In this document: positions 1,026 through 54,290 of the stretch, one piece after another | How the letters are laid out: the number at the start of each line of letters is the position of its first letter | How positions within the stretch are numbered: position 1 is the first letter of the stretch | Origin: an uncultured Gammaproteobacteria bacterium | GTDB lineage: Bacteria; Pseudomonadota; Gammaproteobacteria; UBA9214 | Direction: 5' to 3' | Length of the DNA: 64,000 nucleotides | NCBI GenBank assembly: GCA_963773065.1 | Contig: CAVYZN010000006.1 | Location: 64,001-128,000, forward strand | Translations under genes and position numbers: made by a program | The notes under the pieces: model-generated | The model's database searches: none | What the model was told of the DNA's origin: nothing | Seen by the model: the letters and a program-made list of their open reading frames with translations, nothing else

Positions 1026-2785
1026 CTAGGGTTCATCCTCCGCCGGCTGGTCATCGCCGAGGTCGAGATAACCCTCGCGCAGCAGGTACAGCATGATCAC
1101 CTGCGCGGCCTGCATCGGGCTTTTATTGGCGGTGTCGATGCGTATCTCCGGTTTCTCCGGCACTTCGTAGGGGTCGCTGATGCCGGTGAACTCGGGGATG
1201 ATGCCCTTGCGCGCTTTCGCGTACAGTCCCTTCCGGTCACGGCTCTCGCACACTTCGAGCGAGGTGGCGACATGAATCTCGATGAAGGCGCCGTGCTGCT
1301 CGATCAGCTCGCGCACCTCGCGGCGCATGGCGGTGTAGGGGGCGATCGGCGCGCACAGCGCGATGCCGCCGTTTTTCGTGATCTCGCTGGCCACAAAACC
1401 GATGCGGCGCACGTTGATATTGCGATGCTCCCTGGAAAAGCCCAGCTCGCTGGAGAGGTTGATGCGCACCACGTCGCCATCCAGCAGGGTAACCGGGCGT
1501 TTGCCGTCTTCGATGAACTTGGCATACATGATCTTGGCCAGGGTCGATTTGCCGGAACCCGACAGGCCGGTAAAAAACAGCGTGAGGCCTTTCCTGCTGC
1601 GCGGCGGATAGACCTTGCGCAACTGGGTAATCACCTCGGGATAGGAATACCACGCGGGGACTTCGAGATTGTGCTCCAGGCAATGTTTGAGATCCCGGTC
1701 GCTAAACTGCACGCCTGCCTTGCGCTGCGCGACGAGCTCATCCCAGGTCACGAACGCCTCCCGCTCGGGCGAGTAACTGCGCTCGCGGATCGGCACCATG
1801 CGGATGGCGAGTTCATGCTGGTATTTCTCCATCATTTCCTGGGCCGCATAGCGCGGATAGAAACGTTCTCCCTCCTGGCCCATGCTGCGGGGAGCCGCAT
1901 GTCCCGGACCGACGATCATGTGCGAGCAGCCGTAGTTCTGCCGGATGACCGCGTTCAGCAGCACTTCGCGCGGCCCCGCCATGCGCACCGCGGCGGGCAG
2001 CAGCGAGAGGATGGCCATGTTGTGCGGATAGTGATGTCGGATGGCCTGGTAACAATGCACCCTGGCGTAGTAGTGCAGATCACCCGGCTTGGTCATGCCG
2101 ACGGCAGGGTGCAGCAGGATATTGGCCTGTGCCTCGATGGCGGCCTGCAGGGTGATCTCACGGTGCAGGCGGTGCATGGGTTTGGAGGTGTGGAATCCGA
2201 CGACGTTCTGCCAGCCCATCTTGATGAACAGGCGCCGCAGTTCCTCGGGGGTATGGCGCAAGATCTCGAAATCAAAATGGGCGGGCATCTGTATGCCTTC
2301 GAGTGACGCCTCCAAGGTAGATGTCATGGACCTGTTCAAAGAGATAACGGACTCCCGGATGTTCCACACTGGTCGTGCCATAAATCTCCCCCGCCTCGCG
2401 CTTCTTGTCCGGCTGCCACTTGTCCTCCACGGTAAGCACCGCCAGCATGAATCCCTCGACGTCGCGCAGCGCCACCTTGCCGCCAGGTTCGATCTTTTCC
2501 GCCTGCTTGGCCGGCACGTCCAGTGTTATGGGGATGGACCACAGGTTGCCGTCCGGGAAGGTGCAGATTATCGATGACGGATTCATACGCCGCACGCCCC
2601 ATGAAGCCGCGCAGCGGCGAGAGACCGCCATTGAGCAGCAACTCAAGGTCGCACTCCTGGCGCCGGTTGAGCGTGATGGAGGCATAGTCACCGGACTCGG
2701 CCTTTATCGCCTCCGCCCGATCCGGATCGACCAGTAAATTACACAATTCACCGCCATGCGGTGCAATCAGATGTTCCATCGTCAT
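1026..2785 (-). CDS. cysC: Fused ATP sulfurylase-like / adenylylsulfate (APS) kinase (Sat-CysC); frameshifted
   Basis: N-terminal LIAPHGG and DLELLLNGGLSPLRGFM (Sat PUA-like domain); C-terminal APS kinase motifs FTGLSGSGKST, LLDGDVVR and FTGISDPYE; GAGG RBS upstream. Confidence 0.93.
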
Positions 2786-2943
2786 TGTTCCATTTCCTCG
2801 GTGCGCAAGCCCCGGCTCTCAATTTTTCAGAGCGCCATGAAAACTTTGGTTACATCGTAGTTTCACCGACCTTGGGTTAAGTAGTGTAGCGACGGACCCA
2901 ACAGAATCAAAGCCTTGAAAAGTATTCCCGGGTATTTCAAATC

Positions 2944-3901
2944 TCAATAATTATCCGCCGCGCCCGTGTATCCCGGCCAGCCGGGAGTTCTGCGCAGCCC
3001 CTCCTCCAGCAGAACCCGCGGCCGCCAGCCGATTGCGGCCTGCAGCGCCGTGTGGTCACAGACCCAGTCCCTATGGCGCAGCTCGCGCAGTTTCTCCGGA
3101 GTGAGCATGGGGGCATAACCGAACAGGCGGCTTGCCCGGCGATTCAGATGCGCCGGGATATCGAGCGCCCAGGCGGGTATGCGCAGCAGCGTGTACCGGG
3201 TGCCGGCACACTCGCGCAACGGTAGCCGCGATCTCGGGCCAGTCATAACCCCCCTCCCGTCCGTCATCGAGAGTATAAACACCGTTAGCGGCATGCCCGC
3301 ATTGTATCCAGGTAATAACGGCAGCCGCCAGATCATCGACAAACAGCAGGGAGAAGCGCGCATCGCGTGCACCGGGAACCGGTGCGATGCCTCTGGCCAT
3401 GGCGCGGAACAGCGGTAACAGCTCCCTGTCACCGGGCCCATAGACGGCGGGCGGCCGCAGGGCGATCCAGGCTACCCGGCGTGCTTCGTTGATCAGCACC
3501 TGTTCGCCCCTGAACTTGCTGGCGGCATAAAACGACAGCTGCGGTTCGCGCGCGGCCAGGGACGACAGGGATAGCAGACGGGGCGGCGTGTCCTGGGACT
3601 CCAGGACCAGCAGCAGCCGCATCACACCTTCGACATTGACACGGTCAAATTGATCCTGCGTCGCGCCGCGGACCGCGCCTGCGCAGTGCACCACGACGTC
3701 CGCACCCAGGATCAGGGATTCGAGGGACGCCGTATCCTCAAGACTGCCAAACACCAGGTCGAAATCGCCGGCCTGCAAGGGTCCTGCCTTTTTCATCGAG
3801 CGAACCAGCGCGCGCACCCGGTAGCCTGCCGCGATGAGCTGCCTGGCGATGGTTTGACCGATAAATCCCGTCGCGCCGGTGATGGCAACTGTCTGTGTCA
3901 T
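2944..3901 (-). CDS. NAD-dependent epimerase/SDR, CerR-like ceramide reductase candidate; one frameshift near 3190
   Basis: TGATGFIG, HCAGAV, SSLAAREPQLSFYAASK (YxxxK) and RPPAVYGPGD; lies downstream of the acyl-AMP ligase, as in sphingolipid loci. Confidence 0.8.
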
Positions 3902-4003
3902 GGGGGCAGCATCGCCATGCGTGGTAATTGGCCTCGGGTCCGCGCGGCGCGATTGCGGCAACAGGCCGCTTTTCCGTGTGCTTCCGTGGTTGATGACCGG
4001 GTC

Positions 4004-4032
4004 AAAAAAATAACCGGCCTGGGCCGGTTATT
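4004..4032 (-). terminator. Rho-independent terminator after the acyl-AMP ligase
   Basis: Stem AATAACCGGC / GCCGGTTATT with a 4-nt loop, running into a T-tract on the minus strand (A7 at 4004-4010). Confidence 0.7.
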
Positions 4033-4060
4033 GTTGGATATCAACACGCCCTGCTCTTTG

Positions 4061-52028: not shown

Positions 52029-52030
52029 CC

Positions 52031-53329
52031 ATGGACAAACTCTCAATCCGCGGCAACGGGCCCCTGCGCGGCGAGGTCCGCATCTCGGGCGCCAAGAACG
52101 CGGCCCTGCCGGTGCTGGCCGCGTCCCTGCTCACGGCGGGCAGCATGCGCATCGGCAACGTCCCGCGGCTGCGCGACATCAGCACCATGACGGAACTGCT
52201 GCGCACCCTCGGCACCCAGGTCGAGGCGGCCGGCGACGAGCTGGTCACCAGCACCCGTCAGGTCCACTCGGTGCGCGCGCCGTACCAACTGGTCAAGACC
52301 ATGCGCGCCTCCATCCTGGTGCTGGGACCGCTGCTCGCGCGCTTCGGGGCGGCCGAGGTGTCCCTGCCCGGCGGCTGCGCCATCGGTTCGCGCCCGGTCA
52401 ACCTGCATATCCAGGGGCTGAAGGCGATGGGCGCCGCCATCACCATCGAGGACGGTTATATCAAGGCGCATACCACGGGCCTGCACGGCGCCCGGATCGT
52501 CTTCGATCTCGTCTCGGTCACCGGCACGGAGAACCTGATGATGGCCGCCACCCTCGCCAGCGGCGCCACGGTACTGGAGAACGCCGCGCGCGAACCGGAG
52601 ATCGTCGATCTGGCCAACTGCCTCAACGCCATGGGCGCGCGCATCAAAAACGCCGGCCAGGCCACCATCACCATCGAAGGCGTCGCCGAATTGCACGGCG
52701 CGAGCCACCGCATCATCCCCGACCGGATCGAAACCGGCACCTTCCTGGTGGCCGCCGCGGCAAGCGGCGGCAGGGTGCGGCTGCTGGACACCGCGCCGGC
52801 CCTGCTGGACGTGGTCGTGGACAAGCTGCGCGAAGCCGGCGCCGCTGTCAGCAGCGGCGCCGACTGGATCGAGCTCGACATGCAGGGCCGGCGCGCCCGC
52901 GCGGTCAGCGTCGTGACGGCGCCCTATCCCGCCTTCCCCACCGACATGCAGGCCCAGTTCGTGGCGCTCAATGCCGGCGCCGAGGGGCTTGCCACGGTCA
53001 AGGAGACCATTTTCGAGAACCGCTTCATGCATGTGCAGGAACTGCAGCGCATGGGGGCCGATATCGAACTGCAGGGCAAAACCGCCATCATCCGCGGTAG
53101 CGATAAGCTGCGCGGCGCGCCCGTCATGGCCACCGACCTGCGCGCCTCGGCCGGCCTCGTCATCGCCGCACTGGCCGCCGACGGTGAGACCACGATCGAC
53201 CGCATCTACCATCTCGACCGCGGCTATGATGGCATCGAGACCAAGCTGGCCCGGCTCGGCGCCGCTATTCGACGTGTACCGGGCGAGGCCCGCCGCGCGG
53301 AAGAGCGCAAGGCCCGCAAGATCGGCTGA
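52031..53329 (+). CDS. murA: UDP-N-acetylglucosamine 1-carboxyvinyltransferase
   Basis: [54 protein letters not shown] and ATDLRAS. Confidence 0.97.
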
Positions 53330-53394
53330 TACCGCTCGACGCGGATATTTTTACTAGGAAAATCTCTGAACACGCCTCATCTCCGCGAAGGCAT

Positions 53395-53485
53395 CATCCC
53401 TGTGAAAGCGGGCGTGCTGGGGATCCAGTAACTCACGTGATCCTGCGAGTTCACGACTGGATTCCCGCTTGCGCAGAGGAACTGA
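53395..53485. repeat. Degenerate REP-like palindromic pair
   Basis: CATCCCTGTGAAAGCGGG...GGATCCAG ... CTGGATTCCCGCTTGCGC. Confidence 0.45.
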
Positions 53486-53511
53486 CAGGTATTAATCGCA
53501 GGGCTCAATGA

Positions 53512-54290
53512 ATGTATTCGGCACCGATGACCGCTCAATCCTGGCAGCCGGCGGCGCACCAGCCGCCGCCCACACCCGATGAGATCCATGTCTGGCGCAT
53601 CGATCTTGCCGCCGGCACCGGATCGCCGGCCGGCGCGACGGTGCTCTCCCCCGACGAACGGGAACGCGCCGCTCGTCTGCTGTGCGAACACAAACGCGCC
53701 CAATTCATCGCCGGGCGCAGCGCGCTGCGGCGGCTGCTCGGCCATTACCTCGGCGCGGCGCCGCAGACGCTAACCTTCCGCTACGGCCCGCGCGGCAAAC
53801 CCGCCCTGGCTACCGGAGCGGCGCACAGGACGCTGCAATTCAATTTCAGCAACTCGCGGGATCTGGGGCTGCTCGCCGTCGCGACCGCGCGCGAAATCGG
53901 CATCGACCTCGAGTACCGCCACCGCGGCATCAGTGTGGCGCCGCTCGCGCGGCATATCCTGTCCCCGGGCGAGGCCGCCGCTTTCCAACGTCTCCCGCCG
54001 CAGCGGCACAAGCAGGCGCTGCTCGCGACCTGGACGCGCAAGGAAGCCTACGTCAAGGCCCTGGGTGTCGGACTCGCGCGGTCATTGAAGCAGCTTCTCG
54101 ACAGGGGTTGCCGGCGAAGACGATTACCGCCCGGCTGCAACTGGAGGATGCCAACGGAGAACCGCGGATCTGGACGTTCGCCCCGCTCGCCGTGCATCCC
54201 GATTACCTCGCCTGCCTGGCGGCCCCGGGCAGCGACTGGACACTGCGCTGCTTCGACTGGCGGCCGGCGCTGAACCCACGGCAGCCGTAA
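53512..54290 (+). CDS. Sfp-type 4'-phosphopantetheinyl transferase; frameshift near 54095
   Basis: LSPDERERA, GKP, FNFSNS, IGIDLE and WTRKEAYVKALG.G. Confidence 0.92.

Follow-up and report, generated by a model that had tools for sequence, protein, structure and literature searches.

A ceramide-synthesis gene cluster adjoining a PAPS source and sulfotransferases suggests a sulfated sphingolipid in an uncultured gammaproteobacterium

Introduction

Does a bacterial locus that combines the genes for ceramide synthesis with a source of 3'-phosphoadenosine 5'-phosphosulfate (PAPS) and several sulfotransferase genes direct the synthesis of a sulfated sphingolipid? Such a locus is found in an uncultured gammaproteobacterium (assembly GCA_963773065.1, contig CAVYZN010000006.1), in the 64,000-nucleotide stretch C6:64001-128000, which was analysed as a whole and is referred to below as the window; the genome (G000) comprises 3.84 Mb in 33 contigs, with a G+C content of approximately 60%. 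The genes for bacterial sphingolipid synthesis have been defined recently, and the known head groups are phosphoglycerate, sugars and groups of the phosphoethanolamine type. A first-pass annotation of the window had proposed that sulfate is transferred onto a ceramide-based lipid, as a bacterial analogue of sulfatide. Because the ceramide genes adjoin the sole PAPS-making gene of the genome and several sulfotransferase genes, the locus suggests that sulfur-oxidising gammaproteobacteria make a sulfated sphingolipid for which biosynthetic genes have not yet been assigned. We lean towards the reading that two SULT-like sulfotransferases, ST1 and ST2, together with the bifunctional ATP sulfurylase/adenosine 5'-phosphosulfate (APS) kinase Sat-CysC, sulfate a product of the sphingolipid cluster.

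Judged by the GNAT acyltransferase gene of the cluster, the nearest public relatives are metagenome-assembled genomes of uncultured Gammaproteobacteria (83-86% identity), followed by those of Thiohalobacter and Thiogranum (60-76%) and by Nitrospirales (54-59%). Among the genomes compared, G004 belongs to the same genus as G000, and G010 is a complete one-contig genome from another genus; genera g1 and g2 hold G000, G001 and G010, and genus g4 of the same order holds G031 and G025.

Core ceramide-synthesis genes

All genes named in the first-pass annotation were recovered at about the positions it had given, using Pfam, NCBIfam and ortholog comparison (Table 1), and its ceramide genes are real. 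The serine palmitoyltransferase (Spt) exceeds the cut-off of its NCBIfam model, and stays below cut-off against the models for bioF (327 bits, cut-off 426) and Kbl (319 bits, cut-off 460). Its best matches in the PDB are bacterial (Sphingomonas) serine palmitoyltransferases at 452 bits, with KBL at 232 bits and cysteate-C-fatty acyltransferase at 202 bits, so that the protein sides with the solved bacterial serine palmitoyltransferases and not with BioF/Kbl.

The GNAT-fold acyltransferase, a candidate bacterial ceramide synthase (bCerS), has 271 relatives in genome contigs, with conserved synteny to the genes for Spt, the acyl carrier protein (ACP), a short-chain dehydrogenase/reductase (SDR) and a fatty acyl-AMP ligase; it matched no NCBIfam model, and a sequence search of the PDB returned chance-level P450 matches only. 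The ligase shows 60-97% identity across the compared loci and is always divergent from the GNAT gene. The SDR, of which coordinate 2944 in the first-pass annotation marks only a shifted C-terminal piece, keeps its synteny with ligase and GNAT in many of the 80 loci surveyed, and the best PDB matches of its ortholog in G010 are NDUFA9-like subunits of complex I; we take it that CerR, too, is annotated as NDUFA9-like. The bCerS, CerR and Cpg assignments designate candidates and rest on domain type and synteny.

The survey, a tblastn comparison of 26 window proteins with 80 GNAT loci of genome contigs, revealed an arrangement conserved in Gammaproteobacteria and Nitrospirales. One strand reads (ABC exporter)-Spt-ACP-SDR-ligase, and the divergent arm carries GNAT, nucleotidyltransferase, (phosphoesterase), kinase, a Tam41-like open reading frame (ORF) and often an ELM1-like gene. 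Because the same order recurs in other genomes, the co-location of these genes in the window is not due to chance. The interval between bCerS and Spt amounts to 44 kb in the window and to approximately 25 kb, with different content, in G002; in G010 the two lie 1.1 Mb apart. The insertion of MurA between spt and the phosphopantetheinyl transferase (PPTase) gene is found in this genus, and also in G002, and G010 has ACP, Spt and PPTase contiguous without MurA.

Head-group genes and exporter

A MobA-like (NTP_transf_3) nucleotidyltransferase gene follows the GNAT gene in nearly all loci, and the DAGK_cat kinase is collinear with a 393-aa ORF of G010. Orthologs of the next ORF matched PF09139 in G031 and G061 (27.9 and 29.1 bits, cut-off 24), and its Atlas look-alikes are named as members of the phosphatidate cytidylyltransferase family; such a Tam41-like enzyme could form a CDP-ceramide-like intermediate from ceramide-1-phosphate, which makes it a candidate for the CpgC-type step. 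This Tam41/Mmp37-like ORF sits behind the ceramide kinase or, in g4, behind a CpgA-like gene (L095:13180-14247, L093:7144-8199, L082:1080-2129). The window contains no PF01066 (CpgA-type CDP-alcohol transferase) gene, and one is present in G031. To judge from domain content, the head-group genes point to a phosphorylated lipid like the ceramide phosphoglycerate (CPG) of Caulobacter, possibly glycosylated, over a simple sulfatide analogue; the first-pass proposal of a sulfated ceramide lipid is partly supported, as regards the core pathway, the position of ST1 and ST2 and the PAPS source, and seems overstated as regards a simple sulfatide-like head group.

Orthologs of the ABC exporter of the cluster lie directly behind Spt in six loci (L010, L014, L025, L030, L032 and L061). 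That either ABC exporter of the window is the housekeeping MsbA was ruled out at approximately 230 bits each (234 bits for the exporter at 14094) against a cut-off of 602. A scan of positions 9000-19800 for promoters and terminators stayed at the level of shuffled sequence (4 versus 4.2 and 13 versus 9.2) and gave no evidence on operons.

PAPS supply

Sat-CysC, which is collinear with an intact 591-aa ortholog of G010, matched NF004040 with 617.6 and 61.9 bits on two pieces and TIGR00455 with 192 bits (cut-off 138.7). One APS kinase domain (PF01583) each was found in G000, G001, G010 and G006, and in all four it is that of the Sat-CysC fusion; the window gene, proposed earlier as the PAPS source, is the sole PF01583 match in G000. 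The PAPS/APS reductase family PF01507 was found in none of G000, G001 and G010 (3/3), with 13 of 14 control genomes positive. Given the single APS kinase and the lack of a PF01507 match in these genomes, PAPS seems to be made for the sulfotransferases only. A function of Sat-CysC in assimilatory sulfate reduction was rejected, as far as the PF01507 search tells.

A second, stand-alone ATP sulfurylase is present in G000 (C17:83342-83972), frameshifted as well, and fits dissimilatory sulfur oxidation. In G010 a sulfatase of family PF00884 (L081:5523-7151) lies approximately 4.4 kb from Sat-CysC, past the adjacent Ugd gene; its G000 homologs are on other contigs.

Sulfotransferases of the window

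Five sulfotransferases had been claimed for the window, of which four (ST1, ST2, ST4 and ST5) score above their Pfam cut-offs and one, ST3, is marginal. Alignment of the ST1 family showed the conserved motifs PKxGRTW, FTHD and RDPRDVAVS, including the 5'-phosphosulfate-binding (5'-PSB) and 3'-phosphate-binding (3'-PB) loops for PAPS, which read S..K.GRTW and RDPRDVAVS across the family, as well as a C-terminal KVRRGKVGGY.DYF block. By sequence, the G010 member resembles cytosolic bile-salt/hydroxysteroid, plant and amine sulfotransferases (best E-value 1.9e-15). In a Foldseek search with its AlphaFold model (mean pLDDT 76.3, N-terminus disordered) the matches listed to rank 50 were all small-molecule sulfotransferases, the best being cytosolic SULTs. 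This modelled similarity fits a lipid or other small acceptor, without proving one. The neighbouring paralog ST2, spread over three frames in the window, has an intact ortholog in G004 that matched PF00685 with 90 bits. One run-X3 contig fuses ST1 to ST2, omitting 948 nt (window 12143-13092), and some related strains therefore have, where the window has two tandem genes, only one sulfotransferase that is fused or recombined.

The remaining sulfotransferases do not support the earlier view of all five as one pathway, as ST3, ST4 and ST5 lie in a variable region of lower GC content with Wzx/Wzy-type genes; their more probable role is in the neighbouring polysaccharide, or else in additional decoration of the same glycolipid. 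ST3 and ST4 had no orthologs in the loci of the relatives. ST5, whose GLNQTGTT P-loop is found in the neighbouring frame, is directly upstream of epimerase and WecA-type genes and was assigned to the variable polysaccharide block by position. The Gal-3-O-sulfotransferase family was absent from the Pfam scan results of all the sulfotransferases, and no NCBIfam model matched the sulfotransferases, the ELM1-like or the GT8-like proteins.

Sulfotransferase linkage in relatives and metagenomes

The placement of two SULT-like genes right after the kinase module, noted earlier for the window, recurs: in several genera, as on metagenome contigs, the head-group operon ends with ST1/ST2 or other sulfotransferases. 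In G000 and G004, ST1 and ST2 follow the Tam41-like gene and precede the ABC exporter, all co-directional; in G001 this place is taken by ST1 alone. The complete genome G010 shows the order Sat-CysC, SDR, ligase / GNAT, nucleotidyltransferase, phosphoesterase, kinase, Tam41-like gene, OlsC/LpxO-like hydroxylase, ST1 and ST2, beyond which follow genes for flavocytochrome c sulfide dehydrogenase, DegP and bc1, with no adjacent polysaccharide genes; its hydroxylase scores 240.7 bits against OlsC and 119.6 bits against LpxO, both below cut-off. In G031 and G025 (g4) a PF13469-type sulfotransferase and the same hydroxylase end a complete cluster, with GGDEF/EAL and TRAP genes next; this cluster also carries a CDP-alcohol phosphatidyltransferase and an LptF/LptG pair additional to the housekeeping pair. 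G061 continues past the Tam41-like gene, all on one strand and with gaps of 9-265 nt, with genes for a PF03567 sulfotransferase, a 2-oxoglutarate (2OG) oxygenase, a PF13469 sulfotransferase, a member of the ST1 family and a GT8-like protein, and a Lysobacterales contig carries GNAT, nucleotidyltransferase and sulfotransferase genes in that order.

A reverse search with the ST1-family alignment against metagenome contigs yielded 74 loci, taken from the best 80 of 586 relatives. A core sphingolipid gene was present in 12 of the 74, and in 9 of the 25 loci of at least 9 kb; ELM1-like, GT8-like, 2OG/LpxO-like or LpxL-like genes occurred in 58 of the 74, GT8-like homologs directly adjoined the ST1-family gene in 42, and a Wzy_C-like gene was found in one, by the query used. 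On the longest contigs (L133, L142, L148, L149 and L166) the sulfotransferase, ELM1-like, GT8-like and 2OG genes are located between Spt-ACP and the kinase/Tam41-like genes.

A second conserved locus with the order ST-2OG-ST-GT8like-LpxL-ST-ST-ELM1, and no core sphingolipid gene within reach, was observed on many metagenome contigs (among L097-L170). The same arrangement is also present as a separate locus in G001 (L086, C5:18001-38000) and G010 (L083/L084). Its target could be a glycosphingolipid or the core of the lipopolysaccharide (LPS).

Phyletic distribution

When the ST1 protein was searched in 61 relatives, it was found in 12, all among the 18 GNAT-positive genomes (12/18) and none among the 43 GNAT-negative ones (0/43). 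Across the whole order, the ST1-family profile matched in 15 of 54 genomes, comprising 14 of the 21 bCerS-positive and one of the 33 bCerS-negative genomes; these 54 genomes are close kin from one family, so the co-occurrence counts are not a statistical test. The lone bCerS-negative genome with an ST1-profile match is an 81% complete assembly in 450 contigs.

Table 1. Position and identification of the genes and regions discussed, in window coordinates
Feature	Position	Strand	Evidence and remarks
Sat-CysC, bifunctional ATP sulfurylase/APS kinase	1026-2794	-	PF01747 223 bits, PF01583 197 bits, PUA_2 piece; three frames, two indels
NAD-dependent extended SDR, candidate ceramide reductase (CerR-like)	2968-3961	-	PF01370; frameshift ~3190
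Fatty acyl-AMP ligase, candidate acyl-ACP synthetase (AasR-like)	4121-5849	-	NF006624 708.9 bits, cut-off 600; frameshift ~4330
GNAT-fold acyltransferase, candidate bCerS	6560-7702	+	PF00583 28.9 bits
MobA-like nucleotidyltransferase, CpgD-like	7710-8523	+	PF12804 51-61 bits in intact orthologs; frameshift ~8000
Metallophosphoesterase	8599-9576	-	PF00149; conserved in gammaproteobacterial loci
DAGK_cat lipid kinase, candidate ceramide kinase (CpgB-like)	9550-10672	+	PF00781 45.3 bits; frameshift ~10520
Tam41-like nucleotidyltransferase ('orfX')	10717-11671	+	No Pfam match in window; frameshift ~10996
ST1, SULT-like sulfotransferase	11983-12948	+	PF00685 44.6 bits
ST2, ST1 paralog	~12956-13833	+	PF00685 66.7 bits on one piece; three frames
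ABC exporter, half-transporter	14094-15893	+	PF00664 and PF00005; at least three frames
ST3, marginal sulfotransferase-like ORF	16338-17276	-	Below cut-off: PF13469 17.5 bits, PF00685 14.1 bits; P-loop-like PKTATT
ST4, Sulfotransfer_3 family	17763-18584	-	PF13469 45.9 bits
2OG-Fe(II) oxygenase, candidate hydroxylase	18821-19624	+	PF13640
GT8-like protein, copy 1	20443-21418	+	Paralog of 47232-48071; three frames
Variable Wzx/Wzy-type polysaccharide region	21862-46198		Pfam
ST5, Sulfotransfer_4 family	~37690-38208	+	PF17784 51 bits; N-terminal frameshift
GT8-like protein, copy 2	47232-48071	+	Atlas look-alikes named glycosyl transferase family 8 (lead only)
Two tandem ELM1-like putative GT-B glycosyltransferases	48152-50351	-	PF06258 207.7 and 183.6 bits; divergent from acp-spt
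ACP, dedicated	50588-50830	+	PF00550 (PP-binding) 41.6 bits
Spt, serine palmitoyltransferase	50835-52028	+	NF047599 620.6 bits, cut-off 500
MurA	52031-53329		Between spt and PPTase gene
PPTase, Sfp/HetI-type, for ACP	53512-54273	+	PF01648

Accessory and polysaccharide genes

Homologs of the 2OG oxygenase follow the cluster in L001, L004 and L024, and are located between sulfotransferases in G061 and in many metagenome loci. ELM1-like genes adjoin the cluster in most loci; according to the accounts cited, an ELM1-like protein resembles a GT-B transferase (PMC10936431; PMC10327509). The GT8-like family, of approximately 280 aa and with a VIDPD motif but no Pfam match, is represented by two copies in the window and by one locus in G002 (L088:613-2702), and is very often found beside ST1-family and ELM1-like genes on metagenome contigs. 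Copy 2 adjoins acp-spt, as do the two ELM1-like genes.

The lower-GC region of the window extends from 19.6 to 46.2 kb (GC 0.51-0.60). Besides ST5, a second ABC exporter and a transposase fragment, this part of the window encodes glycosyltransferases of families GT4 and GT2, Wzx and Wzy_C, CapD, a WecA-type transferase, a methyltransferase, an epimerase and AsnB in split form. The DDE transposase fragment (42095-42469), a PF13701 match under the cut-off, sits at the margin of the polysaccharide block, and a full DDE_Tnp_1 transposase is found further downstream at 60127-61512.

Frame changes in the assembly

At least twelve genes of the window are broken by frameshifts, namely those for Sat-CysC (two), SDR, ligase, nucleotidyltransferase, kinase, Tam41-like protein, ST1, ST2, ABC exporter, ST5 and AsnB; relative to the intact G010 orthologs, Sat-CysC carries two frame changes, and the SDR, ligase, nucleotidyltransferase, kinase and Tam41-like genes carry one each. 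Genes that span two or more frames in such number could mean that the frameshifts are real and the pathway has decayed into pseudogenes, an explanation we consider very improbable. The rpoB gene of G000 (C8:162363-166585) is likewise split over three reading frames, the broken genes are still 60-90% identical to intact orthologs, with alignments that differ by frame only, and at window positions 10707, 10996, 12585 and 12708, exactly where the frame changes, indels of 1-2 nt appear in contigs that other public runs gave for closely related strains. Because rpoB is also split, the orthologs of the relatives are intact and other contigs show indels at the same sites, the frameshifts are assembly errors rather than decay. 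Indel errors are frequent across the whole assembly, and pseudogene calls in G000 are therefore unsafe.

What the sulfotransferases may act on

Building on the observed gene identities, gene order and co-occurrence across genomes, and on a single PAPS source for which no reductive use was found, we infer which molecule accepts the sulfate and where it is attached, in what order the steps run and, as product, an anionic lipid of the outer membrane. A Caulobacter-type core, consisting of acp-spt-PPTase, ligase, SDR, GNAT, lipid kinase, two nucleotidyltransferases, phosphoesterase and ABC exporter, would build the sphingolipid, and to this pathway the lineage would have added by acquisition a PAPS-dependent sulfation step. 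With PAPS supplied in the cytoplasm by Sat-CysC, the SULT-like ST1, and perhaps ST2, would transfer sulfate onto a hydroxyl of the sphingolipid, before the lipid is flipped outward by the ABC exporter. Candidate hydroxyls would be an acyl hydroxyl made by the hydroxylase, the glycerate of the head group, or a sugar added by the ELM1-like/GT8-like transferases; the product that receives sulfate ahead of export would probably be a ceramide with hydroxyl and phosphate groups and perhaps sugars. A more elaborate form of this proposal, possible but in our view doubtful, is an LPS-like, phosphate-poor, polyanionic glycosphingolipid, in which the ceramide anchor would be activated via the kinase and the Tam41-like cytidylyltransferase, sugars would be added by WaaA-like ELM1 and GT8-like transferases, 2OG/LpxO-type enzymes would hydroxylate, SULT-like enzymes would sulfate at several points with PAPS from a dedicated Sat-CysC, and export would proceed by a HepA-like ABC exporter and, in relatives, a second LptFG.

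A number of observations weigh against a sphingolipid as the acceptor. A sulfotransferase was found in 5 of the 80 genome-contig loci, and in 4 of the 17 non-Nitrospirales loci that reach at least 3 kb past the Tam41-like gene, the Nitrospirales loci ending too early beyond the cluster to enter this count. Sixteen of the 25 long ST1-family metagenome loci lack a core sphingolipid gene, and many of the sixteen have a distinct grouping in which a gene for an LpxL-like lipid A acyltransferase stands with ELM1-like and GT8-like ones, families of the LPS-core type. ST2 (ortholog L092:1612-2505) reads FNRD where all other members of the family keep FTHD, and so lacks the conserved His of that motif; it retains the PAPS-binding loops, and may be inactive or use another catalytic base. 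CerR is described as periplasmic in Caulobacter in the account cited (PMC11087976), whereas PAPS-dependent sulfation is cytoplasmic. The position of the APS kinase gene directly downstream of ligase and reductase, to which the first-pass annotation had attached weight, is confirmed in the window, but does not hold as a general linkage. Sat-CysC lies beside ligase-SDR only in g1 and g2 (G000, G001 and G010, with PUA fragments in L002 and L008 where the contigs end), is located in G006 on a contig without ligase-SDR genes, and was found in 0 of the 74 ST1-family metagenome loci. Its other flank consists of ugd in G010, and of rmlCDB, ugd, an epimerase, two GT4 genes and a methyltransferase in G000. 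Because of the ugd/rml genes on that side and the restriction of the linkage to g1 and g2, Sat-CysC is a shared precursor gene at a junction and no proof of a sphingolipid target.

Also on this side of the balance is the setting of the window cluster, which is embedded among rml, ugd, glycosyltransferase and Wzx/Wzy genes, with ST1 and ST2 sharing the low GC content of the variable region. The acceptor of all the sulfotransferases, ST1 and ST2 included, might be LPS core, sugars linked to lipid A, O-antigen or exopolysaccharide, and their proximity to the sphingolipid genes would reflect only an envelope super-locus of outer-membrane lipid and glycan genes; we regard this, the main alternative, as unlikely but to be taken seriously. 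In the window, rml, ugd, GT4, GT2, Wzx, Wzy_C, WecA-type and CapD genes do flank and interrupt the cluster, and in Thiogranum loci the sulfotransferase adjoins a Wzy_C/WaaL-like gene, as one does Wzy_C in L033, but G010, G031 and G025 end the sphingolipid operon with a sulfotransferase and have no LPS or polysaccharide genes adjacent, and Wzy_C-like matches are confined, for the query used, to 1 of 74 ST1-family loci. As to protein families, an ELM1-like homolog is reported to be required for the lipooligosaccharide core in Acinetobacter (PMC10936431), the GT8-like lead agrees with this, and the separate locus of relatives and many metagenome contigs pairs ST1-family genes with the LpxL-like lipid A acyltransferase; ST1 itself resembles small-molecule SULTs and is unlike carbohydrate sulfotransferases. 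The distribution of genes over the 54 genomes can be read both ways. PF00685 sulfotransferases of any kind occur in 48 and APS kinase in 33, versus bCerS in 21, so that many sulfotransferase-bearing genomes are without bCerS, and of the 19 genomes with the GT8-like gene four have neither bCerS nor an above-cut-off Spt, one of these four being 98% complete. The ST1 family, on the other hand, is found with 14 of its 15 occurrences in bCerS-positive genomes, whereas LPS is, on our assumption, universal in the order.

A different lipid would be another conceivable acceptor. ST1, ST2 and the hydroxylases might act on the hydroxy-acyl chain of lipid A or on an ornithine lipid and be loosely tied to the sphingolipid, which we judge to be quite unlikely. 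The below-cut-off resemblance to OlsC, and less so to LpxO, of the hydroxylase beside ST1 in G010 agrees with such an acceptor, as do the LpxL-like acyltransferase of the second locus and the stand-alone ST-2OG-ST triplets of G010 and of metagenome loci; in G010, G025, G031 and G061, however, the sphingolipid clusters contain the hydroxylase-sulfotransferase pairs or end with them, and no ornithine-lipid genes turned up in the loci inspected, although no search was aimed at them.

On the more elaborate glycosphingolipid reading, the recurring sulfotransferase/ELM1-like/GT8-like/2OG module would give bacterial sulfated sphingolipids their first gene set, and could account for the sulfate-bearing ceramides of environmental lipidomes. 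Should a sulfated sphingolipid be confirmed, sulfate could replace phosphate as the source of negative charge in the outer membrane, which would matter for phosphorus economy, for sensitivity to cationic peptides and for the lipid biomarkers of sulfur-cycling bacteria. The candidates that the locus offers are the ST1 family, the PF13469-type sulfotransferase, the OlsC/LpxO-like and 2OG hydroxylases, the ELM1-like and GT8-like transferases and the Tam41-like nucleotidyltransferase.

Comparison with known systems

Our literature searches found no characterised bacterial sphingolipid sulfotransferase or sulfated sphingolipid pathway, in agreement with the first-pass annotation, which knew of no characterised bacterial pathway of this kind. 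The closest known system is the sphingolipid/ceramide diphosphoglycerate cluster of Caulobacter crescentus (CC_1152-CC_1168), with which the window shares Spt, a dedicated ACP, an acyl-AMP ligase, an SDR, a GNAT, a DAGK-type kinase and a GNAT-linked nucleotidyltransferase, the comparison being one of domain type and synteny. The Caulobacter cluster is described as comprising Spt, AcpR, CerR, AasR, CerS, the ceramide kinase CpgB, the cytidylyltransferase CpgD, which is the nucleotidyltransferase of the cluster (PMC12275187), the PgsA-like CpgA and a second LptF/G (PMC11324152, PMC12275187, PMC9393093). The g4 relatives share with it the CDP-alcohol phosphatidyltransferase and the second LptF/LptG copy inside the cluster. 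In contrast, the window has acp-spt split from ligase-SDR and no CpgA-type gene, and the accounts of the Caulobacter cluster cited here mention, as far as they go, no sulfotransferase, PAPS, ELM1-like, GT8-like or Tam41-like gene (PMC11324152, PMC12275187, PMC9393093).

With eukaryotic sulfatide synthesis the window would share, by analogy and as proposed chemistry, the PAPS-dependent O-sulfation of a ceramide-based lipid. Eukaryotic sulfatide is made by ceramide galactosyltransferase and the cerebroside sulfotransferase GAL3ST1, whereas the window sulfotransferases have no Gal-3-O-sulfotransferase match and ST1 is a SULT-like member of PF00685. The sulfonolipids of Bacteroidota (capnine, sulfobacin) are likewise sulfur-bearing, sphingolipid-like lipids derived from an Spt-like enzyme. 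They are C-S sulfonates made from cysteate, however, and need neither PAPS nor a sulfotransferase; the window Spt, moreover, differs in scoring 452 bits against serine palmitoyltransferase and 202 bits against cysteate-C-fatty acyltransferase. Sulfate-activation genes and a sulfotransferase that serve one glycolipid pathway are known from the Nod factor of Rhizobium (NodPQ/NodH) and from mycobacterial sulfolipid-1 (Stf0), although the acceptors and sulfotransferase families of these systems differ from those of the window.

Sulfate-1-deoxyceramides, which are ceramides of bacterial type, have been reported from the anoxic waters of the Black Sea, with 1-deoxy bases and the sulfate on the fatty-acyl chain; the account cited assigns no genes to them, makes no mention of a sulfotransferase and proposes producers in other phyla (PMC11334938). 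A sulfate in that position fits the module of hydroxylase and sulfotransferase genes that was observed here.

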